Source: Clostridiales bacterium (GTDB lineage: Bacteria; Bacillota; Dehalobacteriia; UBA7702). Taken from it: a DNA stretch of 64,000 nucleotides. Each line of letters opens with the position of its first letter. Position 1 is the first letter of the stretch. The position numbers and the translations under genes were made by a program. Below, in pieces: positions 7,930 through 61,644 of the stretch. The stretch covers positions 151,215-215,214 of the forward strand of contig JAXGZS010000004.1 of NCBI GenBank assembly GCA_040776805.1, in the 5' to 3' direction. The notes under the pieces are model-generated. The model did no database searches, was not told the DNA's origin, and worked only from the letters and a program-made list of their open reading frames with translations.

Positions 7930-8949
7930 TCACCTGTTACCGTACATTTTTTCATAGTAGTTTTGGTACTCCCCGGCCAGAATCTCTTCCCACCAGTCCC
8001 GATGTTCCAAATACCAGCCAATCGTCTTGGCGATACCGTCGCTGAACGCGGTCTGCGGCAGCCAGTCCAGCTCGTTATGGATCTTTGTGGGGTCGATGGC
8101 GTAGCGCATATCGTGTCCGGGGCGGTCTTTTACGTAAGTAATGAAACTTTCCGGCTTATCAAGAGCTTTTAAGATCGTTTTCACCACATCGATATTGGCC
8201 TTTTCATTATGGCCGCCGATGTTATAGACTTCCCCTATCCTGCCCTTTCTCATCACCAGATCGATGGCACGGCAGTGGTCCTCCACATAAAGCCAATCGC
8301 GGACGTTTTTGCCGTCGCCGTAAACCGGCAGGTTCTCATCGTTTAAGGCTCTCACAATCATCAGCGGAATCAGCTTTTCCGGAAAATGATAGGGGCCGTA
8401 ATTATTGGAACAGCGGCTGATGGAAACCGGCAGGCCGTAGGTGCGGTGATAGGCCAGTACCAGCAAATCAGCGGCAGCCTTCGATGCCGAATAGGGACTG
8501 CTGGTATGGAGAGGCGTTTCCTCGGTGAAAAAGAGGTCCGGCCGATCCAGGGGCAAATCGCCGTAAACTTCATCGGTGGATACCTGATGAAAGCGGTCGA
8601 TGCCGTATTTGCGGCAGGCGTCCAACAATACCTGGGTACCTAAAACATTGGTTTGCAGAAAGATTCCGGGATCCTCCACGGAGCGGTCCACATGGCTCTC
8701 GGCAGCAAAATTGACCACCATATCGAATTCTTCCTCTTCAAACAGGGGAAATATGCTGTCTCTGTCGGCAATATCGCTTTTGACAAAACGGAAATTGCTT
8801 TGATCAAGTATGCCGTCGAGGTTTTTCAGATTCCCCGCATAAGTCAGCAGGTCCAGACAGACAATGCGGTCTTCAGGGTGATGGTGCTGCTGATCATAGA
8901 TGAAATTACTGCCGATGAAACCGGCACCGCCGGTGACAAGGATATTCAT
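7930..8949 (-). CDS. rfbB: dTDP-glucose 4,6-dehydratase
   Basis: MNILVTGGAGFIGSNF start, a YSASKAA catalytic motif and a 339-aa length. Confidence 0.9.
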   Translation of the reverse strand: MNILVTGGAGFIGSNFIYDQQHHHPEDRIVCLDLLTYAGNLKNLDGILDQSNFRFVKSDIADRDSIFPLFEEEEFDMVVNFAAESHVDRSVEDPGIFLQTNVLGTQVLLDACRKYGIDRFHQVSTDEVYGDLPLDRPDLFFTEETPLHTSSPYSASKAAADLLVLAYHRTYGLPVSISRCSNNYGPYHFPEKLIPLMIVRALNDENLPVYGDGKNVRDWLYVEDHCRAIDLVMRKGRIGEVYNIGGHNEKANIDVVKTILKALDKPESFITYVKDRPGHDMRYAIDPTKIHNELDWLPQTAFSDGIAKTIGWYLEHRDWWEEILAGEYQNYYEKMYGNR

Positions 8950-9515
8950 ACGTTATCTCCTTTAAAGATGAAATTGCAGTCACTGTCTTTTAACAGCGGC
9001 GCGTTTTGATCTTTCGCCGATAAAATCGGATCGCCAACGCCCCAATCAACCCCGATGAAAGGATCGTCAAAGCGAATGCTGCGGTCGCAATCGGGGCAAT
9101 AGGGATTGTCCACTTTATAGAGAAAGATCACATCTTCGCTGAGGGTAACAAAGCCGTGGCCAAAACCGCGAGGCAGCAGCAACTGCCGGTGGTTTTCGGC
9201 GGTCAGTTCCACGCCGACCCACTGTCCGTAATAGGGCGAACCTTTTCGCAGATCCACTGCCACGTCCATCACAGCGCCTTGTACCACCCGCACCACCTTG
9301 GCCTGGGCCATAGGCTCCTGCTGAAAGTGGATGCCCCGGACAGTCCCCTTTTTTGCTGTAAAGCTCTCATTATCCTGCACAAAACGAAAATGTAAACCCT
9401 GGTGTTCCCATGCTGCGGTGGACCAGGTTTCCGTAAAATAACCGCGATGATCTCCGAAAACCTTCGGTTCTATGATATAAACGCCGGGCAGCGCTGTTTC
9501 GATCCGTTCCATCAT
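8946..9515 (-). CDS. rfbC: dTDP-4-dehydrorhamnose 3,5-epimerase
   Basis: LPGVYIIEPKVFGDHRGYFTETWS is an RmlC cupin motif. Length 189 aa. Confidence 0.9.
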   Translation of the reverse strand: MMERIETALPGVYIIEPKVFGDHRGYFTETWSTAAWEHQGLHFRFVQDNESFTAKKGTVRGIHFQQEPMAQAKVVRVVQGAVMDVAVDLRKGSPYYGQWVGVELTAENHRQLLLPRGFGHGFVTLSEDVIFLYKVDNPYCPDCDRSIRFDDPFIGVDWGVGDPILSAKDQNAPLLKDSDCNFIFKGDNV

Positions 9516-9521
9516 AACCTC

Positions 9522-10406
9522 TCAATATCTGATTTTTCCTTCGGCCACGCGTTTTAAATGTTCGCCGTAAGGTGATTTGCCGTAGCGGCACGCCGATTCC
9601 TTCAGGGTTTCTTCACTGATCCAGCCGTTGATATAAGCAATCTCTTCCGGTGCGGAAATCTTAATGCTCTGGCGCATTTCAATCATGCGCACGAAATCCG
9701 CCGCTTCACTCAAAGAATTGACGGTGCCCGTATCAAACCAGGCAAAACCGCGACCCATCAACTCTACGTTCAATGCTTGATTCTCTAAATAGAGCCGGTT
9801 TAAGTCGGTGATCTCCAGTTCTCCCCTGGGGGAGGGTTTCACCTTTTTGGCCAGTTTGGCCACACGGTTATCGTAAAAATAAAGCCCGGTGAGGCAATAG
9901 TTGGATTTGGGGTTTTGCGGTTTCTCTTCCACCGATAAGACTTTGCCGTGTTCATCGAATTCCACAATCCCGAAACGCTCCGGATCCGAGACGTAATAAC
10001 CGAAGACCGTCGCAATGCCTTTTTCGGCATTCCCCACGGCGTTTCTCAGCATGGAACGAAAACCGTTGCCGTAAAAGATATTATCCCCTAAAATCATGGC
10101 ACAGCAGTCGTCGCCGATAAACTCTTCCCCGATCAAAAAGGCTTGGGCCAATCCGTCGGGAGAGGGCTGCACCTGATAGGAAAGGCGAACGCCGTATTGA
10201 GTGCCGTCGCCCAAAAGTTTTTCAAAATTCGGCAGATCCTCCGGGGTAGAGATGATCAAAATATCCCGAATCCCCGCCAGCATAAGGGTGGATAGAGGGT
10301 AATACACCATGGGTTTATCGTATACCGGCAACAGCTGTTTCGATGTTACCATGGTGAGGGGGTAAAGTCGCGTACCGGCGCCACCGGCTAAAATGATACC
10401 TTTCAT
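9522..10406 (-). CDS. rfbA: glucose-1-phosphate thymidylyltransferase
   Basis: [18 protein letters not shown] nucleotidyltransferase motif. Length 294 aa. Confidence 0.9.
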
Positions 10407-16141: not shown

Positions 16142-16354
16142 TCATCCCCTCCCTTTTCTTTTCGCGTCCCGCTCCCGCACAGCGTCGATAACAACGTCTT
16201 CCAGAGCGTTGTTGATACTGGCGGTCACCGGCTTTTCATCTTCTCTCAGTTGCTTTGTGACCTGGTCAAAACAGTGGTTGCAGTAATATTCCTCCCGCAC
16301 AAGATAGGCTTTGCCGGGAGCAATGCGCTGGCTGCAATTTTTACAAATCAACAT
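16142..16354 (-). CDS. small zinc-ribbon protein (CxxC ... CxxC)
   Basis: 70 aa, MLICKNCSQRI...YYCNHCFD. A strong AAGGAGG Shine-Dalgarno lies 7 nt upstream of the ATG. Confidence 0.55.
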   Translation of the reverse strand: MLICKNCSQRIAPGKAYLVREEYYCNHCFDQVTKQLREDEKPVTASINNALEDVVIDAVRERDAKRKGRG

Positions 16355-16642: not shown

Positions 16643-17389
16643 ATGATTTTACCGTTTCAACATATCAAAAACGGCCGCGAACTCGGCGGCCTGACCGCCG
16701 CTGACGGCAAAAAGACAAAATGCCGCCTGCTTTTGCGCACAGGAGAGCTCTTTGCCGCCGATGAGAAGGAAATTCTATCCTTGCGTGAGGATTATAAGAT
16801 CAAAACCGTCATTGATTTCAGAGATATCAGCGAATGTGAAATACGCCCCGATAAAGAGATCCCCGGCGCCGTCTACCACCAGATTCCCATCTTACCGCCG
16901 CAGCCGCAAGAGATCCGCGAAAATCTGATGACCAGGCTCATGCATGAACCCAAAGCCACGTTTTTACGGATCTATGAACACATCGCCGAAAACAGTGACG
17001 CCGCCGCCGCTTACCAAAAATTCTTCCAGGTCGTCCTTGAAAATCGGGGCGTCCCCCTGCTCTACCATTGCCGCCAGGGGAAAGACCGTACCGGCATTGC
17101 CTCCATTCTGCTTTTATCCGCCCTCGGCGTGCCGAAAGAAGAGGTGCTCAAGGATTATTTTCTCACCAACGAACTGTTAAAAGCCGATTATGAAGCGCTG
17201 AAAGCCCAGGGTACCCCGGAAGAGCAGCTAGAAAAGGCCAGGGATATCTTATTTGTCATGGAGGAGTGCGTCCATAGCTATCTTGGGCTGTTGAAAAAAA
17301 ATTGGGGCAGTGTGGACGGATATCTCCAAGGCGCCCTCTGCCTGGGGAAAGGAGATTTAAAGACACTCCGCGCCATTTATACCGAATGA
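16643..17389 (+). CDS. protein-tyrosine phosphatase (CX5R dual-specificity/PTP superfamily)
   Basis: Active-site loop YHCRQGKDRTGIAS. An AAAGGAGAAAAAC Shine-Dalgarno precedes the start. Confidence 0.8.
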   Translation: MILPFQHIKNGRELGGLTAADGKKTKCRLLLRTGELFAADEKEILSLREDYKIKTVIDFRDISECEIRPDKEIPGAVYHQIPILPPQPQEIRENLMTRLMHEPKATFLRIYEHIAENSDAAAAYQKFFQVVLENRGVPLLYHCRQGKDRTGIASILLLSALGVPKEEVLKDYFLTNELLKADYEALKAQGTPEEQLEKARDILFVMEECVHSYLGLLKKNWGSVDGYLQGALCLGKGDLKTLRAIYTE

Positions 17390-17445
17390 GCGCTAAAAAA
17401 ACTTGTCCCCGTCATTCATGAATTTCATCCACTTTATCAAAGAAA

Positions 17446-17506
17446 GGGTGTCCTTTGGGCTTTTTACGCCTTGCGGGACACCCCGTTCCGTTCCGGGTGC
17501 TTTTTC
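17446..17506 (+). terminator. putative terminator after the tyrosine phosphatase gene
   Basis: Two overlapping GC-rich hairpins (gggtgtcc...ggacaccc and caccccg...cgggtg) followed by cttttt. Confidence 0.45.
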
Positions 17507-17539
17507 CGATAATACCAGTAACAAAAAAGAGGCCTTTTT

Positions 17540-17555
17540 CATATTGTACAATATG
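17540..17555. promoter_or_regulatory. perfect 16-bp palindrome CATATTGTACAATATG, a candidate operator overlapping the promoter of the Cys-rich gene
   Basis: The sequence is its own reverse complement. It lies 24-39 nt upstream of the 17579 ATG and is embedded in an AT-rich, promoter-like stretch. Confidence 0.4.
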
Positions 17556-17578
17556 AAAATCATTAAAGGAGGCCCCAA

Positions 17579-17923
17579 ATGAGCAGAAAATGTTGCGGAA
17601 ATTGTTCCTCGAATTCCTGCGGCTGCAACAGATGCGGATGTGGGTGTGGTAATGGCTGTGATTGTGGCTGCGGATGTGGGTGTGGTAATGGCTGTGATTG
17701 CGGCGGCGGCTGTGGATGCGGCAACTGCACAGGTTGCTTTGGCTGCTGCGATTACAGTTGTGTCTTAAGTTCCATCTATAATGTCTATACGCTCCAATAC
17801 CTCGCGTCAATCTTGTACGCTTTCTTAGGTTGCGGGTTCACAGGTCCGTGCAGCCCCTGTTGTCCCTGCGGCATACCGGGACCCGGTCCCTGCCCCTGTA
17901 ACAGCGGCGTCGCCGCCCAGTAA
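17579..17923 (+). CDS. cysteine/glycine-rich repeat protein with a (CG)n-type array and a C-terminal hydrophobic segment; candidate metal-binding protein
   Basis: AAAGGAGG Shine-Dalgarno 7 nt upstream. 114 aa, about 30% Cys. CGCGCGNGCDCG occurs twice from a 36-nt tandem duplication at 17634-17705. A hydrophobic stretch IYNVYTLQYLASILYAFLG follows, and the protein ends CSPCCPCGIPGPGPCPC. Confidence 0.6.
   Translation: MSRKCCGNCSSNSCGCNRCGCGCGNGCDCGCGCGCGNGCDCGGGCGCGNCTGCFGCCDYSCVLSSIYNVYTLQYLASILYAFLGCGFTGPCSPCCPCGIPGPGPCPCNSGVAAQ
17777..17803 (+). repeat. left copy of a roughly 27-bp direct repeat (atgtctatacgctccaatacctcgcgt) inside the Cys-rich ORF
   Basis: About 22 of the first 24 nt match the copy at 18816-18843. 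Both copies encode the peptide NVYTLQYL. Confidence 0.7.
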
Positions 17924-17932
17924 AGCAAGGCC

Positions 17933-18238
17933 ATGGAAGCGGAAAAGACCGTTGACTTAAACCCTTTTGGTGACGGTATCTCCGGTGCAGGCACACCTTG
18001 GGCAGATACATTCCGCCTTGAGGGGCCGAGCGAAAACATTCCTTGGGACAGTGCAAATGGCTGCGCCGGGCGATGGCAGGGCAATCCTTATGATGATATC
18101 TCCTGGGATTGTACTCCCTGGTGGTATATCCCCTGCCATAACGGCGCGCCATGGTACGCACAGTTTTTGGTTAGCGTCTATGCTTATGAGACCTGTGTCC
18201 ATTCGCTATGCTGTCTTTTCCGTCGCCCGGAGGGTTGA
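17933..18238 (+). CDS. hypothetical Trp/Pro/Gly-rich small protein, possibly co-transcribed with the Cys-rich gene
   Basis: 101 aa ORF that starts 10 nt after the upstream stop. Sequence includes PWADTF...PWDSANGCAGRWQGNPYDDISWDCTPWWYIPCHNGAPWY. It lies between the Cys-rich gene and the terminator at 18282. The Shine-Dalgarno is weak. Confidence 0.35.
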   Translation: MEAEKTVDLNPFGDGISGAGTPWADTFRLEGPSENIPWDSANGCAGRWQGNPYDDISWDCTPWWYIPCHNGAPWYAQFLVSVYAYETCVHSLCCLFRRPEG

Positions 18239-18281
18239 CAATGCTGCCCGTGTCAAAAAGGAAATGAGGAGATATGATGAC

Positions 18282-18309
18282 AAAAACCCGGCTTTGCCGG
18301 GTTTTTTTA
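18282..18309 (+). terminator. rho-independent terminator
   Basis: aaaaa cccggc ttt gccggg ttttttt. Confidence 0.8.
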
Positions 18310-18430
18310 TAGTAACTCGAATTTCAGCGCGTTTATCCCAAAAATCAATGGTGTATCAAAAGGAGCGCTCTTGAAAAAAAAGCGTTTTTCTGATAAGATA
18401 ATATTATACTAACGTTAAGGAAGGTTCACC

Positions 18431-18814
18431 ATGAATATCTATGAATCCGGAGAAGATTATCTGGAAACGATCCTGATGTTAAAAGAACGCAACGGCAATG
18501 TCCGCTCCATCGATATCGCCCACGAAATGAATTTCAAAAAGCCCAGCGTTAGCTACGCGATGAAACAGTTTCGGGAAAACGGTTACATTTTTGTGGATGA
18601 GGACGGCTTTATCCATTTGACGGAAAGCGGAGAACAGATCGCCAAGCGGGTTTACGAACGCCACCGTGTTTTGACGCAGCTTTTGCTTTTCCTCGGTGTG
18701 TCAAAGGAAAACGCCAAAAAAGACGCGTGTAAAATTGAGCACGACCTCAGTGAGGAGACCTTTGATTGCATCAAGGGCTATCTCATGAAAAGCGGGGTCA
18801 AAATCAAGCTTTAA
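18431..18814 (+). CDS. DtxR/MntR-family metal-dependent transcriptional regulator (short MntR-like form without an SH3-like domain)
   Basis: 127 aa. An N-terminal winged-helix region EDYLETILMLKERNGNVRSIDIAHEMNFKKPSVSYAMKQF is present. Metal-site-like residues are conserved (D/E near position 10, H in YERHRVL, E..EH in KIEHDLSEE). AAGGAAGG Shine-Dalgarno upstream. Confidence 0.8.
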   Translation: MNIYESGEDYLETILMLKERNGNVRSIDIAHEMNFKKPSVSYAMKQFRENGYIFVDEDGFIHLTESGEQIAKRVYERHRVLTQLLLFLGVSKENAKKDACKIEHDLSEETFDCIKGYLMKSGVKIKL

Positions 18815-18815
18815 A

Positions 18816-18843
18816 ATGTCTATACGCTTCAATATCTATAGTC
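18816..18843 (+). repeat. right copy of the direct repeat (aatgtctatacgcttcaatatctatag), immediately after the regulator stop codon
   Basis: In frame it reads N V Y T L Q Y L stop. This duplicates a coding fragment of the Cys-rich gene. Confidence 0.7.
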
Positions 18844-18862
18844 TATCCGTAGGTGTACGCAA

Positions 18863-18890
18863 GAGTCCCCTCCATAGGGGACTCTTTTTT
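18863..18890 (+). terminator. rho-independent terminator
   Basis: gagtcccc tccata ggggactc tttttt. Confidence 0.8.
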
Positions 18891-18894
18891 ACAT

Positions 18895-19311
18895 TCAGGT
18901 GTGTGACGCGCCGAAAAAGCGCGCGATTTCAATTTTGGCGTTTTCGGCGGAATCGGCTCCGTGAATGATATTTTCCGAGGTGCAAAAGGCAAAGTCACCC
19001 CGGATGGTGCCGGCGGCGGCGTCCTCCACCTTCGTCGCCCCCATCAGGCTGCGCACACCCTTTACGGCGTTTTCCCCTTCCACGATCATGGCGAGGACCG
19101 GACCGGAGGTCATAAAGCGCAAAACTTCGGGAAAGAAGGGAAAATCGGCGATATGGGCGTAGTGTTCCCGTAAAACCGCCTCATCAAGGAGGATCATCTT
19201 TGCGTCGGTAATGCGGTATCCCTTGTTTTCAATTCTTGTGATCACCTGCCCCATCAAGCCCCTCTTGACGCAATCGGGTTTCAGCATCACATAGGTTTTT
19301 TCAATGGCCAT
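18895..19311 (-). CDS. ndk: nucleoside diphosphate kinase
   Basis: ERTYVMLKPD-like start (EKTYVMLKPDCVKRGL) and the NIIHGSD-like active-site region (NIIHGADS). Length 138 aa. Confidence 0.9.
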   Translation of the reverse strand: MAIEKTYVMLKPDCVKRGLMGQVITRIENKGYRITDAKMILLDEAVLREHYAHIADFPFFPEVLRFMTSGPVLAMIVEGENAVKGVRSLMGATKVEDAAAGTIRGDFAFCTSENIIHGADSAENAKIEIARFFGASHT

Positions 19312-32212: not shown

Positions 32213-35200
32213 TTAGTGAGGCCAAACGATGTTCGGCTTCAATGCCGTCCAGGTTTCGGTTCCGTCTTCGTTGCGTTCGTAATAGTGGCTGTTCGTCGCT
32301 TCCTGCATTGCCAGGTAATACCATTTCGTCGTATCCATGTTATCGGGCCAGACGATCATACCTAAGAGCAGCGCTTCCGGAGAAGCAGGAATACGATTCA
32401 ACACATTATTGATCAACGTAACCGCTTCAGCACGGGTGATGTAGAGATCGGGCCGGAACGAATGGTCTTCATAGCCTTTAACCCAACCGTTGTTGGCGGC
32501 AATATTGATTTCGTCTTCCGCCCAATGCCCTGCAATATCCGTAAAATCGGTGGGCGTTGTATCACCGCTGCCGTCAAACCTGGCGGCGATGGCGGCAAAT
32601 TCCGCTCTGGTGATGTATCCGTTGGGATGGAACGTATTATCCGGATAACCCTTTACAATATTCAGTGCACGCAGAGTCAGTACTGCTGTGCTGTACCAAG
32701 CTCCATCGGGGACATCGCTGAAAGAATTGGAGCTTGTAGAATAGGCATCGCTGGCTTTTTCTGTCAGCAAGCGGTAGAAGATCGTCGCAACCTCGGCACG
32801 GGTGATATTTCTTCCCGGTCCAACGTTCCCGTCCGGATAACCGATGATATACGCGAAGTGATCTTCATCGTTGAGTAAGGGGTTGATGGTAAAATCAGCG
32901 GGAATGACAGTAACATCGTAGTTGCTGTTTTCGGTGTAGCCCGCGGTGATGACTCCGGTGTAGGTACCGGCGTCTTCCGCCGAGTTCGTGCGGTAATAGA
33001 AAACAGTACCAAGATCACCTGCATTGACCAAACCGTCAATGGTACCGCCAAAGCTCGGATCGGCTTCGCCGACGAATTTATCGGCATCGTTTACGGTAAT
33101 CGTCACAGGTTTCATCGTTACAATCAAGGTGCCGCTGTTCACAGTAACATATGGGTACGTACCTTCCGTAGTGATATCATAATCAGCAAGGTTAACGGCG
33201 AAACCGACGTTGGTGATGCTGCCGGTAACGGTGACGGTGATTTCATCGCCGTTCGGTAAGAAGTATTTGCCTTCCCCGTCCGCCGTAACCGGCGCGCCGT
33301 CACAAGTAATGGTGAAACCATCGTCGCTGTGGGAAGCGCCGTCATAGGTCCAGCTGTTGCTGTTTGCCGTAATCACGATGATGTTATCGTTTTCGATGAT
33401 GATCGGCATGGAGATCGTGAAGTCACCGGGAACGATTGTAACATCGTAATTGGTGTTGGCGGTATAGTCGGCGGTCAGCACATCGTCATAGGTGCCGACG
33501 GCTTCGTCACTGTTGGTACGGGAATAGCTAACGGTGCCCAAATCATCACCGTTCACGAGGCCGTTCACGGTACCGCTGAAAGTAGGATCAGGATCACCCA
33601 CCGTTTTCCCTGCGTCATTTACGGTAATCGTAACCGCTTTTGCCGTCACGGTCAGGACACCGTCGGTGGCGGTAACGTCGCTGTAGTTTCCTTCATTTTC
33701 CAGGGTGTAAGCGACGCTGTTGGCCGCAGTACCGACGTCGGTGATGCTGCCGGTAACGGTGACGGTAATTTCATCACCGGTGGGTAAGAAGTATTTGCCG
33801 TCCCCGTCCGCCGTGACTGCCGCGCCGTCGTAGGTAACGGTGAAACCGTCGTCGCTGTGGGAAGCGCCGTCATAGATCCAGCTGTTGCTGTTTGCCGTAA
33901 TCACGATGGGGTTTTCATCGGCAGTGATCGTGAAGTCTCCGGGGACAACCGTTACATCGTAATTGGTGTTGGCGGTATAGTCGGCGGTCAGTACGTCGTC
34001 ATAGGTGCCGACGGCTTCGTCGCTGTTGGTGCGGGAATAGCTGACGGTGCCCAAATCATCACTGTTCACGAGACCGTCCACAGTACCGCTGAAGGCGGGA
34101 TCCGCCGTGCCGTACACTTTATCCGCGTCGTTTACGGTAATCGTAACTTCTTTTGCCGTCACGGTCAGGACACCGTCGGTGGCGGTAACGTCGCTGTAGT
34201 TTCCTTCATTTTCCAGGGTGTAAGCGACGCTGTTGGTCGCAGTACCGACGTCGGTGATGCTGCCGGTAACGGTGACGGTGATTTCATCACCGGTGGGTAA
34301 GAAGTATTTGCCGTCCCCGTCCGCCGTGACTGCCGCGCCGTCGTAGGTAACGGTGAAACCGTCGTCGCTGTGGGAAGCGCCGTCATAGATCCAGCTGTTG
34401 CTGTTTGCCGTAATCACGATGGGGTTTTCATCGGCAGTGATCGTGAAGTCTCCGGGGACAACCGTTACATCGTAATTGGTGTTGGCGGTATAGTCGGCGG
34501 TCAGTACGTCGTCATAGGTGCCGACGGCTTCGTCGCTGTTGGTGCGGGAATAGCTGACGGTGCCCAAATCATCACCGTTCACGAGGCCGTCCACGGTACC
34601 GCTGAAAGTAGGATCAGGATCACCCACCGTTTTCCCTGCGTCATTTACCGTAATCGTAACTTCTTTTGCCGTCACGGTCAGGACACCGTCGGTGGCGGTA
34701 ACGCCGCTGTAGTTTCCTTCATTTTCCAGGGTGTAAGCGACGCTGTTGGCCGCAGTACCGACGTCGGTGATGCTGCCGGTAACGGTGACGGTGATTTCAT
34801 CACCGGTGGGTAAGAAGTATTTGCCGTCCCCGTCCGCCGTGACTGCCGCGCCGTCGTAGGTAACGGTGAAACCGTCGTCGCTGTGGGAAGCGCCGTCATA
34901 GATCCAGCTGTTGCTGTTTGCCGTAATCACGATGGGGTTTTCATCGGCAGTGATCGTGAAGTCTCCGGGGACAACCGTTACATCGTAATTGGTGTTGGCG
35001 GTATAGTCGGCGGTCAGTACGTCGTCATAGGTGCCGACGGCTTCGTCGCTGTTGGTGCGGGAATAGCTGACGGTGCCCAAATCATCACCGTTCACGAGGC
35101 CGTCCACGGTACCGCTGAAGGCGGGATCCGCCGTGCCGTACACTTTATCCGCGTCGTTTACCGTAATCGTAACCGCTTTTGCCGTCACGGTCAGGACACC

Positions 35201-35701
35201 GTCGGTGGCGGTAACGTCGCTGTAGTTTCCTTCATTTTCCAGGGTGTAAGCGACGCTGTTGGTCGCAGTACCGACGTCGGTGATGCTGCCGGTAACGGTG
35301 ACGGTGATTTCATCACCGGTGGGTAAGAAGTATTTTCCGTCCCCGTCCGCCGTAACCGCCGCGCCGTCGTAGGTAACGGTGAAACCGTCGTCGCTGTGGG
35401 AAGCGCCGTCATAGATCCAGCTGTTGCTGTTTGCCGTAATCACGATGGGGTTTTCATCGGCAGTGATCGTGAAGTCTCCGGGGACAACCGTTACATCGTA
35501 ATTGGTGTTGGCGGTATAGTCGGCGGTCAGCACGTCGTCATAGGTGCCGACGGCTTCGTCGCTGTTGGTGCGGGAATAGCTGACGGTGCCCAAATCATCA
35601 CTGTTCACGAGGCCGTCCACGGTACCGCTGAAGGCGGGATCCGCTGTGCCGTACACTTTATCCGCGTCGTTTACGGTAATCGTAACTTCTTTTGCCGTCA
35701 C
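32213..35701 (-). CDS. C-terminal 1162-aa intact portion of the giant SLH-domain surface protein (5.5 copies of a 171-aa repeat plus three SLH repeats)
   Basis: The repeat unit TAKEVTITVNDADKVYGTADPAFSGTVDGLVNxDDLGTVSYSRTNSDEAVGTYDDVLTADYTANTNYDVTVVPGDFTIT... looks like an MBG-type adhesin-associated domain. The C-terminus carries NITRAEVATIFYRLL and ITRAEFAAIAARF SLH motifs. Confidence 0.75.
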   Translation of the reverse strand: MTAKEVTITVNDADKVYGTADPAFSGTVDGLVNSDDLGTVSYSRTNSDEAVGTYDDVLTADYTANTNYDVTVVPGDFTITADENPIVITANSNSWIYDGASHSDDGFTVTYDGAAVTADGDGKYFLPTGDEITVTVTGSITDVGTATNSVAYTLENEGNYSDVTATDGVLTVTAKAVTITVNDADKVYGTADPAFSGTVDGLVNGDDLGTVSYSRTNSDEAVGTYDDVLTADYTANTNYDVTVVPGDFTITADENPIVITANSNSWIYDGASHSDDGFTVTYDGAAVTADGDGKYFLPTGDEITVTVTGSITDVGTAANSVAYTLENEGNYSGVTATDGVLTVTAKEVTITVNDAGKTVGDPDPTFSGTVDGLVNGDDLGTVSYSRTNSDEAVGTYDDVLTADYTANTNYDVTVVPGDFTITADENPIVITANSNSWIYDGASHSDDGFTVTYDGAAVTADGDGKYFLPTGDEITVTVTGSITDVGTATNSVAYTLENEGNYSDVTATDGVLTVTAKEVTITVNDADKVYGTADPAFSGTVDGLVNSDDLGTVSYSRTNSDEAVGTYDDVLTADYTANTNYDVTVVPGDFTITADENPIVITANSNSWIYDGASHSDDGFTVTYDGAAVTADGDGKYFLPTGDEITVTVTGSITDVGTAANSVAYTLENEGNYSDVTATDGVLTVTAKAVTITVNDAGKTVGDPDPTFSGTVNGLVNGDDLGTVSYSRTNSDEAVGTYDDVLTADYTANTNYDVTIVPGDFTISMPIIIENDNIIVITANSNSWTYDGASHSDDGFTITCDGAPVTADGEGKYFLPNGDEITVTVTGSITNVGFAVNLADYDITTEGTYPYVTVNSGTLIVTMKPVTITVNDADKFVGEADPSFGGTIDGLVNAGDLGTVFYYRTNSAEDAGTYTGVITAGYTENSNYDVTVIPADFTINPLLNDEDHFAYIIGYPDGNVGPGRNITRAEVATIFYRLLTEKASDAYSTSSNSFSDVPDGAWYSTAVLTLRALNIVKGYPDNTFHPNGYITRAEFAAIAARFDGSGDTTPTDFTDIAGHWAEDEINIAANNGWVKGYEDHSFRPDLYITRAEAVTLINNVLNRIPASPEALLLGMIVWPDNMDTTKWYYLAMQEATNSHYYERNEDGTETWTALKPNIVWPH

Positions 35702-36725
35702 GGTCAGGACACCGTCGGTGGCGGTAACGTCGCTGTAGTTTCCTTCATTTTCCAGGGTGTAAGCGACGCTGTTCGCCGCAGTACCGACGTCGGTGATGCT
35801 GCCGGTAACGGTGACGGTGATTTCATCACGGTGGGTAAGAAGTATTTGCCGTCCCCGTCCGCCGTGACTGCCGCGCCGTCGTAGGTAACGGTGAAACCGT
35901 CGTCGCTGTGGGAAGCGCCGTCATAGATCCAGCTGTTGCTGTTTGCCGTAATCACGATGGGGTTTTCATCGGCAGTGATCGTGAAGTCTCCGGGACAACC
36001 GTTACATCGTAATTGGTGTTGGCGGTATAGTCGGCGGTCAGTACGTCGTCATAGGTGCCGACGGCTCTGTCGCTGTTGGTGCGGGAATAGCTGACGGTGC
36101 CCAAATCATCACTGTTCACGAGACCGTCCACAGTACCGCTGAAGGCGGGATCCGCCGTGCCGTACACTTTATCCGCGTCGTTTACGGTAATCGTAACTTC
36201 TTTTGCCGTCACGGTCAGGACACCGTCGGTGGCGGTAACGTCGCTGTAGTTTCCTTCATTTTCCAGGGTGTAAGCGACGCTGTTGGTCGCAGTACCGACG
36301 TCGGTGATGCTGCCGGTAACGGTGACGGTGATTTCATCACCGGTGGGTAAGAGTATTTGCCGTCCCCGTCCGCCGTGACTGCCGCGCCGTCGTAGGTAAC
36401 GGTGAAACCGTCGTCGCTGTGGGAAGCGCCGTCATAGATCCAGCTGTTGCTGTTTGCCGTAATCACGATGGGGTTTTCATCGGCAGTGATCGTGAAGTCT
36501 CCGGGACAACCGTTACATCGTAATTGGTGTTGGCGGTATAGTCGGCGGTCAGTACGTCGTCATAGGTGCCGACGGCTTCGTCGCTGTTGGTGCGGGAATA
36601 GCTGACGGTGCCCAAATCATCACCGTTCACGAGGCCGTCCACGGTACCGCTGAAGGCGGGATCCGCCGTGCCGTACACTTTATCCGCGTCGTTTACCGTA
36701 ATCGTAACCGCTTTTTTTTTGATAT
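32890..36725 (-). repeat. 513-bp tandem repeat array, about 7 near-identical units plus one degenerate unit, in coding sequence
   Basis: The periodicity shows in the ORF track (33652, 34165, 34678, 35191 and so on). Units are above 95% identical at the nucleotide level. Confidence 0.9.
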
Positions 36726-38129
36726 CAAGAGTCCCCGGCACATAGTTAATATTGATATGACTTGTAACGTCCGTGGTACCATTCTTCACCGTTGCAGTTC
36801 CCTGAAACGTGCCATCATAGCTGCTTACATCGGTGCCTTCCGCCGTATAAGTAATTCCCGTAACAGTGTAGCCTGCGGGTAAACCCTCGACATCATAGTC
36901 CGTCAAGCTTTGCTGGCTTCCGTTATAGATTAAGCTGGAACTGTCTCCGATAATCACAATGGATTTACTGTAAGTATATTTAACGTCAATGGTGGATGTC
37001 GTATCGGCGGCGGTAACGGTAAACGTCACGGTGCCGTCGGCAGCCACCTGATAATCTGTGATGCCGGTAACGGTAACACCCGTGTAAGACCAGGTGCCTT
37101 CCGGTACCGTAGGTCCTGTGGTTGCGGGAGTAAAGGTGTAATCACCTTCCGGTAATCCGCTCAAGGTCGTTGGTACTGACTGGGCGTAATCGTATTGATT
37201 GGCAATGTCTCCATAAGCATGAGTAACATCAATGCCGCCGGATACGGTATAAGGTGTTGAGCTAAGACCAAAACCGCCGTCACCCATGAATAATATAACG
37301 GAAAGCGTAATCACGGTAGCATGGTCCATCGGGGCTTTGATGACAATCCAATGTTGATCATTATGAGGAATGGTTGTCCCCGCGTTAAGCACACGGACAT
37401 CGTTTTCATAAATCTGTAAATTTTTCCCGGTTTCAATGTCATAAACATCTGCTTCAATGTTGCCGATGATCTCGGTACCGTTAACAAGGACAGATTTCAA
37501 ATTGAGATCATACACTTGTTTTGCGGCATCAAGCGCGATGTATGTACTGCCGTTATACTGCCAGATGTACATTGCCTCGTTCTTGCCGTTGGTAGAGTGA
37601 CCATCAAGTTCATAGACATTGGTCTCCGTCAAAAATATACCTTCACCGGGATCCATAATCACTTCAGCTTTTGCGGGTAAAGATGAGAAAGTAAGTAGTA
37701 ATGTCATCACCAAAAGAATCGCGAAACTCGATTTCTTCATTTTGCTCCCCTCCTTCGTTTTTTTCAGCAAAATGGTTTCTCTTTGTCCATTGGGAAACTT
37801 TGCGGTTCTTTCATTTTTGCTTTTGTCGCCGGCATCTTTCTTGCCTTGTTGTACCATTTCCCCCTCACCGTTTTTACAGTGTTTTATGGGTTTTCCTGCG
37901 TCCGGGAAAAGTGTCATCTTTTTGTGAAACAATCGGCCATTCCTTTCGATAGGCTTGCGGTAAAATGATGACCACCCCCTTTTTTACGATATGCAAAGTT
38001 TCTATTATTATCATCATAATAATTGATAATAACGTTTTGCGCATGGCCCATAGGGTATCAATCCTTAAAAAAAAACAAACCGGATAAAAAAGTATCACGG
38101 CTTGTAAAATATTATGATGTACCGGTCGT

Positions 38130-59978: not shown

Positions 59979-61644
59979 ATTCCTGATTCCTTTCTGTAAA
60001 GTACTTTTCGCTGAGCATATTCAGCGTCTTTAGAAAGTGTTCTGCATTCAGCTCTTGTTGTTCTTCGTTTTCCTCAGCCTGCTGATCCTCGGCGGAATAG
60101 GGGTTATGCTGACCTCCCTGTTCGTCCTTGGATAATTGCTGTTGGGCTGACTTTTGCTCCTGGGGCAAAGAAAGCTGAACTTCCTGTTGCATGTGGGACT
60201 GCAGCAGCGCCTTAATATCATCGGCGTTGGCCAAAATGATGCTCTGCGTTTTCGCGCTGGCCGCACAAATTTCCACGATTAAGATACTGTTTTCCACCGT
60301 CATCTTCACATTGACCTTGCCCAAATCTTTGGGATATAATTGCATTTCAAAAGCCTTGCTGTTCTGATCAAAATGAGCGTTTATTTGGTGCGACAGCTGA
60401 GTTCGAACTGCGTTTTGGGTTTGGTCTGTAGATTTGACTTGGCTTTGGCCCAAGGTTTGCACTGGCGCCGTGTTCGGTAAGGCGGTATCACCCACGCTTT
60501 GCCTTTGCTCCCTGATTTCCGCCGGTTCCCCGTTTTGCGCCGGGGTCAAAACGATGCTGTCTACCGTGGTTTGCGGCGGGATAAAAACACCGTTGGCTGC
60601 CGTGGTTTGCGCTTGAGTGAAAACTGCGCTGGCGGCGCTGGTTTGCGGTTGTGTTGAAACGCCGCTGGCTACCGTGGTTTGCGATTTGCCGTATCCCGGG
60701 CCGCGGTTCTGTGCTACCGCCTCAGCGGGAAATCCTATCTTCATTGATTGCAACGTTTCATTCTGAGAAGGGTTTTTCGGTCGCCCTGGCAGCGGCGTTG
60801 ACCCCATGGCCGCGGCTGCGGACATCACCGGCGCCGATCCTTGATTGCCGCGAGCTTGTTCTACTTCGGAAACCGGCGCCGTCACCCTTTGCGACAGCGG
60901 ATGGAAACTGTTTTGCGTTTCCCCAAAGACACTCACCCCTTGCCGGACGGCGTTTAATCCCGCCAATGTCGGGGGTTCGCTGGCCGACGGAGACGACGCT
61001 ATGGCTGTAGTTTGACCTTGCTCTGTGTTGAACAAAGGATTCTGCGTGAGACTGCTCCCTTGCAACATCCCGGCTGTTTGCGGCAAAAAGGCCAAACCGG
61101 TCAGGGAGAGGGATCTTTGTCCTGTTGGCAATGGGGACTCTGCATAAACATTAGCCGCCTGGGCTCTCTGATCCTCCGTGATGTTTACGCCGGGGAAATC
61201 GCTCCCGATAGCGGGAAAACCAAGGTTTTCACTGTTTACCGCCTTAGGGTTTACCGTCAACCCCTCTGTTTCTGCCTTAGGGTCTTGCGTTAACCCCTCT
61301 GCGTTCATGGCAGCCGGCAGCAGGGGCAAATCCGCCACGTGGGGCCCCATGGATTTTCCTTGAACCATTGGTATGAACCAATCGCTTACAGCGAGAAGCT
61401 GTTGGTTTACGGCCCCGCTCCCAAGAGCGGTTTGCTCCCCATTGGCCTCCGCGCCTGTTTTACCTTCCTCACTCTGGCCACAATCCTTTTTACCACAAAT
61501 TCCTGGGGTTACAGCGGAAAGGCTTTGTTCCTTCAGCATTTTGGGAAAGAGATCGGATTTTTGGCCGGCTTCACCGACCACTGCCGGATTTACGGCTGCT
61601 GTTTGCGTTATACTGTTGCATTGTATCTGCTCCACTTTTCTCAC
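59968..61644 (-). CDS. fliK: flagellar hook-length control protein FliK
   Basis: Long Q/P/T-rich central region. C-terminal FliK domain (LYPKDLGKVNVKMTVENSILIVEICAASAKTQSIILANADDIKALL). Confidence 0.8.
   Translation of the reverse strand: MRKVEQIQCNSITQTAAVNPAVVGEAGQKSDLFPKMLKEQSLSAVTPGICGKKDCGQSEEGKTGAEANGEQTALGSGAVNQQLLAVSDWFIPMVQGKSMGPHVADLPLLPAAMNAEGLTQDPKAETEGLTVNPKAVNSENLGFPAIGSDFPGVNITEDQRAQAANVYAESPLPTGQRSLSLTGLAFLPQTAGMLQGSSLTQNPLFNTEQGQTTAIASSPSASEPPTLAGLNAVRQGVSVFGETQNSFHPLSQRVTAPVSEVEQARGNQGSAPVMSAAAAMGSTPLPGRPKNPSQNETLQSMKIGFPAEAVAQNRGPGYGKSQTTVASGVSTQPQTSAASAVFTQAQTTAANGVFIPPQTTVDSIVLTPAQNGEPAEIREQRQSVGDTALPNTAPVQTLGQSQVKSTDQTQNAVRTQLSHQINAHFDQNSKAFEMQLYPKDLGKVNVKMTVENSILIVEICAASAKTQSIILANADDIKALLQSHMQQEVQLSLPQEQKSAQQQLSKDEQGGQHNPYSAEDQQAEENEEQQELNAEHFLKTLNMLSEKYFTERNQEYGN

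Follow-up and report, generated by a model that had tools for sequence, protein, structure and literature searches.

Join-point remnants left by short-homology (RecA-independent) illegitimate recombination are known from duplications in Salmonella and Escherichia coli. Small Cys-rich proteins encoded beside metal sensors are also known, as in the SmtA/SmtB pair of a metallothionein and a metalloregulator of the ArsR/SmtB type. Here we describe a locus that recalls both systems in part, located in a stretch of 64,000 nucleotides (nt) of a Clostridiales bacterium genome (assembly GCA_040776805.1, contig JAXGZS010000004.1, positions 151,215 to 215,214 of the forward strand), which is referred to below as the window. 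A segment of a small open reading frame (ORF) coding for a Cys-rich protein (copy 1) recurs directly behind a gene for a metalloregulator of the DtxR/MntR family (copy 2). With attL/attR sites or target-site repeats, this pair shares its uniform orientation, its distance of ~1 kb and the fact that it brackets a regulator gene with a predicted promoter and a terminator of its own. With the join points of tandem duplications it shares a head-to-tail geometry, a derived, lineage-specific state and possibly a microhomology of 4-5 nt (TA.AA), and with short-patch ectopic conversion or template switching a short tract from a donor 1 kb away. The original prediction for this locus saw in the pair the footprint of an insertion or duplication that had rewritten the 3′ end of the Cys-rich gene or, alternatively, a site-specific recombination scar; either would imply that the regulator arrived as a cassette. 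As described below, copy 2 is not the boundary of an inserted cassette. It is probably a non-functional scar, some 26-35 nt copied from the core of the Cys-rich gene to a position just past the stop codon of the regulator.

A piece of the Cys-rich gene recurs behind the regulator

Both copies (coordinates in Table 1) were read directly from the sequence. Copy 1, TATAATGTCTATACGCTCCAATACCTCGCGTCAATC, lies inside the Cys-rich ORF, and the first base of copy 2, TAAAATGTCTATACGCTTCAATATCTATAGTCTATC, is in the regulator's stop codon. A repeat search showed that 29 of the 36 positions are identical and that the two copies start 1035 nt, or 345 codons, apart. In copy 1, the series AAT GTC TAT ACG CTN CAA TAY CTN makes up codons 68-75 (N68-L75) of the Cys-rich ORF; in copy 2, it continues the reading frame of the regulator immediately behind the TAA (18812-18814) and runs into a TAG at 18839-18841. 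The translation of both copies is NVYTLQYL. A tblastn comparison aligned NVYTLQYL*SI with NVYTLQYLASI (10 of 11 residues), the in-frame TAG of copy 2 standing in place of Ala76 of the Cys-rich ORF. The repeated fragment noticed in the original prediction is thus real and in frame in both places, and the Cys-rich tail, Trp-rich ORF, terminator and MntR-like gene listed between the copies are all there. The position then given for copy 2 (18816-18843) was ~1-4 nt off, and the 22 matches counted over 24 nt come to 21, neither of which is material.

The repeat is solid over 26 nt and probably extends over 35-36 nt. Extensions of the repeat with gaps to TGTACGC or CTTAGGT were considered and rejected as not significant (p ~0.05-0.06 by shuffling for the gapped extension to TGTACGC); folding assigns the TGTACGC stretch to the outer stem of the terminator at 18861-18892, of which TGTAC is a part.

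Since the repeat is short and was noticed by eye post hoc, chance similarity of two short sequences had to be considered. A 23-nt pattern with at most three mismatches occurs exactly twice in the 64 kb, while none of 100 dinucleotide shuffles contained two occurrences. The pair has a score of 17 (+1/-2, ungapped); when any pair at most 3 kb apart was compared in Markov-1 simulated windows, 0 of 20 reached this value (maximum 16). In the real window, outside a large coding tandem repeat, only three other pairs reach 17, all of them of short period or low complexity. The match is, moreover, in codon register, and the identity climbs to 31 of 35 positions when copy 2 is compared with the ancestral-like copy 1 of a related locus, L010. 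The repeat pair is not chance, and a coincidence of this kind would be very improbable.

Copy 2 is confined to one clade and is younger than the gene order around it

Genome and metagenome scans revealed three species-level lineages that share the gene order from a tyrosine phosphatase gene to bcp: that of the window, that of L009 (Peptococcaceae bacterium UBA7702) and L021, and that of L010 and L101. Nucleotide identity over 13 kb is 89.9% between the window and L009, 87.0% between the window and L010 and 86.4% between L009 and L010, which makes L009 the closest relative of the window. L010 and L101 have copy 2 with one change (TAT to GAT). In L009 and L021, the same 26 positions read GACCAGCCTACACAATAGAG[A/G]CTCTG, a patch of equal length with ~45-50% identity to copy 2; the flanks on both sides match at 90% or more. 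A search of the collected loci for a donor of this patch found none. One part of the patch, GAGACTCT, is similar to the right arm of the terminator next to it. Extra copies of the repeat motif (at most five mismatches) were found only in L010 and L101, the motif being present once per locus in 18 other loci. A metagenome scan for the regulator retrieved one close relative (L021); the other 79 matches were distant regulators (at most 70% identity), none of which stood beside Cys-rich or Trp-rich genes or was followed by the motif.

Two outgroups were reached by a search with the neighbouring phosphatase. At the amino acid level, the phosphatase and the regulator of L102 are 75% and 87% identical to those of the window, and those of L106 (a 2.6-Mb contig) 56% and 80%. 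Both outgroups keep the order of phosphatase, Cys-rich, Trp-rich-like and regulator genes; copy 2 is absent from both, and terminators of their own stand right after the regulator stop. Nucleotide homology between the window and L102 extends only as far as 18812, where copy 2 starts. Since L102 and L106 carry the four-gene order without copy 2, this arrangement is older than the repeat. The regulator was thus already present when the repeat arose, and its arrival cannot have left this footprint. When copy 2 was compared with copy 1 of each genome, 31 of 36 positions matched in L009 and L010, 30 in L102 and 24-27 in the rest. The best match being the copy 1 of its own clade, it follows that copy 2 was copied locally, and recently relative to the L106 split. 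All close relatives share the arrangement, which the original prediction would have taken as a sign of an old event; the equal divergence of both copies that was to accompany it was not observed.

The four-gene block occupies 16643-18814 in the window, 6001-8104 in L102 and 6001-8444 in L106. The regulator is a long-standing neighbour of this module, and synteny breaks repeatedly at its 3′ end: it is followed by ndk in the window clade, but L102 has a gene with a PALP domain at this place and L106 has MttB.

The bracketed genes did not arrive as a cassette

The above comparisons bear on the possibility that the two copies are direct repeats (a target duplication or an att scar) left by the insertion of a ~1 kb cassette that supplied a new tail to the Cys-rich gene and brought in the Trp-rich ORF and the regulator. 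Apart from the geometry of the pair, this explanation draws on genomes in which the Cys-rich gene lies directly against a PALP gene: in L001-L005, L008, L011 and L016, EamA and Cys-rich genes are convergent on an orthologous PALP gene, and the Trp-rich gene and the regulator are missing. The Cys-rich genes of these genomes are, however, complete, and those of L001, L008 and L011 have tails of their own. The neighbourhood has been reshuffled several times, yet the relatives contain no empty site of the predicted kind, i.e., a Cys-rich gene that ends in NVYTLQYL* without the intervening 1 kb. Nor are both repeats found wherever the bracketed genes occur, since L102 and L106 have these genes without copy 2 and L009 and L021 have them with a different patch.

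Trp-rich homologs are located directly 3′ of the Cys-rich gene in L009, L010, L102, L106, L108, L012 and L013. In L012 and L013, which are distant Clostridiales metagenome-assembled genomes, no regulator accompanies them; the Trp-rich ORF therefore did not arrive with the regulator and cannot be counted as part of a regulator cassette, as had been proposed. A Pfam search of all ORFs between 12.8 and 26.3 kb revealed no recombinase, integrase or transposase, the matches in this neighbourhood being to glycosyltransferases, LytR, tyrosine phosphatase, ndk, peroxiredoxin, a Ca exchanger and flagellar genes, and the repeat motif had 0 matches in viral contigs. Thus, unlike attL/attR sites, the repeats have no recombinase or transposase at hand, no empty site and no occurrence in other contexts; one of them forms the best-conserved segment of a host gene that is intact and goes on unaltered behind it, and in relatives the bracketed genes occur without the other. 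We consider a cassette insertion highly improbable. Of the predicted footprint of an insertion or duplication, the duplication stands and the insertion does not, because the outgroups carry the regulator without copy 2. Arrival of the regulator as a cassette is contradicted by the same gene order in L102 and L106. Site-specific recombination finds no support, given the absence of an integrase or transposase nearby and of the motif from viral contigs, and the absence or overwriting of copy 2 in L009 and L021.

The Cys-rich gene is intact

The family of the Cys-rich protein is very small. The ORF matched no Pfam or NCBIfam family, eight homologs were found among 5.8 billion proteins searched, and no convincing further member came from a profile search of 1.84 billion representatives; in the same set of representatives, the Cys-rich and Trp-rich family pair accounts for only ~4 clusters at 50% identity. 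The family has an invariant core, C.D[YF]SCVLSSIYNVY[TV]LQYLASIL..LG.G, which runs through the repeat (SCVLSSIYNVYTLQYLASIL). In all eight database homologs and in 12 genome loci, NVYTLQYL is continued by ASIL..LG.G, and no family member ending at NVYTLQYL was found among the eight homologs, in the genome loci or by the profile search. A literature search for the peptide found no papers. Since the residues after NVYTLQYL belong to the invariant family core, the 3′ end of the Cys-rich gene has not been rewritten by an insertion or duplication, as had been suggested; the tail expected of a cassette junction is lacking, and copy 2 did not alter the Cys-rich protein.

The genome scan found a single Cys-rich locus per genome, which speaks against another possible origin of copy 2, namely that it is all that is left of a second Cys-rich gene, the product of a recent duplication, which once stood beside ndk and was fused to the end of the regulator by a deletion or rearrangement. 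Such an origin would agree with the position of copy 2 exactly where the L102/L106 synteny ends and the ndk side begins, and with the convergence of Cys-rich genes on varied neighbours elsewhere (e.g., PALP in L001, L008 and L011). However, copy 2 and the resident copy 1 hardly differ at synonymous sites, so that the paralog must have been very young, and nothing else of such a gene remains. We therefore regard a lost paralog as unlikely.

Within the Cys-rich gene, a 36-nt tandem duplication (97% identical; 17633-17704) encodes CGCGCGNGCDCG twice. L010 lacks one of the 36-nt units, and the repeat number differs among the relatives.

Copy 2 is best read as a local copying accident

The donor of copy 2 is the Cys-rich gene's own core. 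The core that holds copy 1 is invariant and continues past the repeat, while copy 2 is a fragment; it is clade-specific, younger than the four-gene arrangement and placed in the non-coding spacer between stop codon and terminator. It also appears to be dispensable, given that the nearest relative, L009/L021, carries an unrelated patch at the site. The best reading of the event is an ordinary local copying accident, either a microhomology-type duplication or a short-patch conversion in the 3′ untranslated region (UTR) of the regulator.

Two routes can be envisaged. In route (a), a unit of 1035 nt, from Cys-rich codon 68 to the regulator stop, would have been duplicated head to tail by joining at the microhomology TA(T/A)AA, and a later imprecise deletion would have left only the start of the second unit. 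The spacing of 1035 nt puts copy 2 exactly at the restart of such a tandem unit, directly after the last base of the first. Unlike known tandem-duplication join points, no more than 26-35 nt of the putative second unit are left at this locus, which is why a second, imprecise deletion has to be assumed; no lineage with the full 1035-nt duplication was found among the relatives. In route (b), copy 2 would have originated in one step as a short-patch templated copy, by template switch or ectopic conversion, helped by small similarities already present at the left (TA.AA) and the right edge (GTCTATC). The left edges of the two copies have TA(T/A)AA in common, and the post-stop sequences TAAAACATCGAT of L106 and TAAAAATATGAT of L102 weakly resemble TATAATGTCTAT, all of these being very short stretches. 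A conversion-like feature is that the same 26 nt are filled in the sister lineage by another sequence of equal length, as for a replacement and not an insertion. The homology available to guide the exchange is, in contrast to typical conversion, minimal (TA on the left, GTCTATC on the right). By either route, the scar would since have drifted or been exchanged between lineages.

Several points weigh against the view of copy 2 as a local scar. Between the stop codon and the terminator, the window and L010 differ at 1 of ~46 nt, compared with 20-38% at synonymous sites in the flanking genes, and this low difference at copy 2 could be a sign of constraint. It falls within a block of ~220 nt (18640-18860) over which the window and L010 are ~97% identical and L009 is the outlier; this distribution of similarities points to a local recombination exchange, which is simpler than constraint. 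The L009 patch has the same length as copy 2, for which the scar offers no explanation. Either allele could be the ancestral one within the clade, and the sequence is compatible with both route (a) and route (b). Finally, the ndk-side junction is available in only three species-level lineages.

The same low divergence would be expected if copy 2 were a functional RNA element that couples the expression of these genes in cis or in trans. In the sense orientation, it would act from the regulator's 3′ UTR as a decoy or mimic of the Cys-rich mRNA core; in the antisense orientation, ndk read-through transcripts would base-pair with the Cys-rich mRNA over 23-26 nt. The hairpin at 18861-18892 has a T run on the + strand only and none on the ndk side, so that transcripts of ndk could read into copy 2 in antisense. 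Yet copy 2 is replaced in L009 and L021 and absent from L102 and L106, which have the same genes, and its conservation is part of a block suggestive of recombination. Rfam 15 covariance models run over 17300-19000 gave sub-threshold matches elsewhere only and none at the repeats, and folding predicts only the terminator. The pair corresponds to no known protein-binding family either. A functional RNA element is accordingly an improbable reading. We give still less credence to the particular proposal that copy 2 has been retained for an action at the RNA level, be it perfect antisense pairing of ndk read-through transcripts over 23-26 nt or a sense decoy, within the 3′ UTR, of a putative spore-coat mRNA core. 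If it were true, housekeeping or metal-regulator transcription would be tied to the synthesis of a sporulation protein, and a young trans-acting regulator would have been caught soon after its birth from a coding fragment. Read-through translation of the eight post-stop codons (NVYTLQYL versus PAYTIETL) was rejected as well, since the substitutions are distributed 4:3:6 over the codon positions and give no clear coding signature.

Genes and signals around the repeats

The features of the locus are collected in Table 1.

Table 1. Repeats, genes and predicted signals at the locus (window coordinates unless another locus is named).
Feature	Position	Strand	Remarks
Putative σK-like promoter of Cys-rich gene	17518..17548	+	GTAACA, then AC-N17-CATATTGTA; from conserved motif
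Cys-rich ORF (114 amino acids)	17579..17923	+	Small uncharacterised family; variable Cys/Gly-rich ends, invariant hydrophobic core
Copy 1 of repeat (donor)	17777..17812	+	Codons Y67-I78 of invariant core, IYNVYTLQYLASI
Trp-rich ORF (101 amino acids), partner of Cys-rich gene	17933..18238	+	Core PWYAQxLVxxYAY...CCLF
Intrinsic terminator-like hairpin ending Cys-rich/Trp-rich unit	18282..18308	+	CCCGGC-TTT-GCCGGG, then T run
Candidate σ70-like promoter of regulator	18371..18399	+	TTGAAA-17-TAAGAT with TG; consensus match only
DtxR/MntR-family metalloregulator (127 amino acids)	18431..18814	+	Full length for subfamily; both Pfam domains
Copy 2 of repeat	18812..18847	+	TAA AAT GTC TAT ACG CTT CAA TAT CTA TAG TCTATC; presumed 3′ UTR of regulator
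Replacement patch (26 nt)	L009 9235-9260; L021 1324-1349; window equivalent 18813-18838		
Hairpin terminator between convergent regulator and ndk	18861..18892	+	AAGAGTCCCC...GGGGACTCTT, then T run
ndk (nucleoside diphosphate kinase)	18895..19311	-	Downstream neighbour of regulator only in window clade

The regulator matches PF01325 (Fe_dep_repress) with 44.7 bits (cut-off 26) and PF02742 (Fe_dep_repr_C) with 57.5 bits (cut-off 27); with both matches above the cut-off, it has an N-terminal winged-helix DNA-binding domain and a metal-binding and dimerisation domain. It scores below the equivalog cut-offs of the NCBIfam MntR models. A C-terminal truncation of the regulator at the junction was considered and rejected, homologs of the subfamily being 119-137 amino acids long. 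The hairpin at 18282-18308 is kept in L009, L010 and L102.

The Trp-rich ORF stops at TGA 18236-18238 in the window and in L009. L010 and L101 read TAC at this position, and their ORF runs 13 codons further (YQCCPCQKGNEEI); the sequence downstream of the stop is still conserved in the window. Judged from this comparison, the window's Trp-rich ORF may recently have lost a tail that was rich in Cys. The possibility that the Cys-rich and Trp-rich proteins are paralogs was dropped as unsupported (BLASTP E > 3).

Upstream of the phosphatase, a small ORF of 70 amino acids of the CxxC type is present in all relatives (16142-16354, minus strand, in the window; 889-1101 in L102; 5645-5857 in L106; also in L107 and L108). 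The product of the window ORF has a weak LIM-like Pfam match (E = 7e-4), which is below the cut-off. On the other side of the L106 regulator, MttB (trimethylamine methyltransferase family; 8594-10063, minus strand) is called as two adjoining ORFs of 141 and 328 amino acids, as would be expected of an in-frame stop codon, possibly one read as pyrrolysine.

Elsewhere in the window, near-identical tandem repeats with a period of 511-513 nt (at least five units) extend over ~33300-36700, in minus-strand ORFs 32213-35701 and 36463-37932, and encode repeated MBG_2 domains of an SLH-domain cell-surface protein. Tandem Repeats Finder, with its maximum period of 500, misses the 513-nt repeat. Direct repeats of short period, with offsets of 36, 72 and 108 nt, are found at ~60470-60690 and end in ...CTACCGTGGTTTGCG.

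A putative σK-like promoter and the Cys-rich/Trp-rich module

The motif GT[CA]ACA-N15-17-CATAnnnTA is present upstream of the Cys-rich homologs in 18 of the 18 loci examined. The σK consensus, as summarised for C. difficile and B. subtilis, has AC at -35 and CATA... at -10 (PMC3789822). The motif has the σK form (-35 AC, -10 CATA---TA, spacing of 16-17 nt), and since it stands upstream of all 18 homologs, the Cys-rich gene is probably a late mother-cell gene coding for a spore coat or exosporium protein. A perfect 24-nt palindrome, TTTTCATATTGTACAATATGAAAA (17536-17559), overlaps the putative -10 element and the 5′ UTR of the Cys-rich gene and is largely kept in the relatives; it could serve as an operator besides being a promoter element.

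The locus resembles SmtA/SmtB in that a very Cys-rich small protein is encoded beside the gene of a metal-sensing repressor, an adjacency that is kept across a family-level clade (L102, L106). In contrast to that pair, the regulator is of the DtxR/MntR and not the ArsR/SmtB type, and the Cys-rich gene has a conserved, putative σK-like promoter and codes for an invariant hydrophobic core. Most Cys-rich homologs have no adjoining regulator.

The value of these results lies less in the scar than in the genes beside it. The scar itself matters little; it is a small, datable case of coding pieces being pasted into nearby spacers of a Peptococcaceae chromosome, and it cautions against taking every direct repeat around a regulator as the sign of a cassette. 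Of greater interest is a by-product of the analysis, the Cys-rich/Trp-rich pair and its putative σK-like promoter. The analysis defines an unannotated two-gene module, a Cys-rich protein and a Trp/Cys-rich partner, both with invariant hydrophobic cores and hypervariable Cys/Gly tails, which in one family-level clade is stably linked to a DtxR/MntR-type regulator. By their sequences and the predicted promoter, the two proteins probably belong to the spore coat or exosporium of uncultured Peptococcaceae/Clostridia and would be new components of it.

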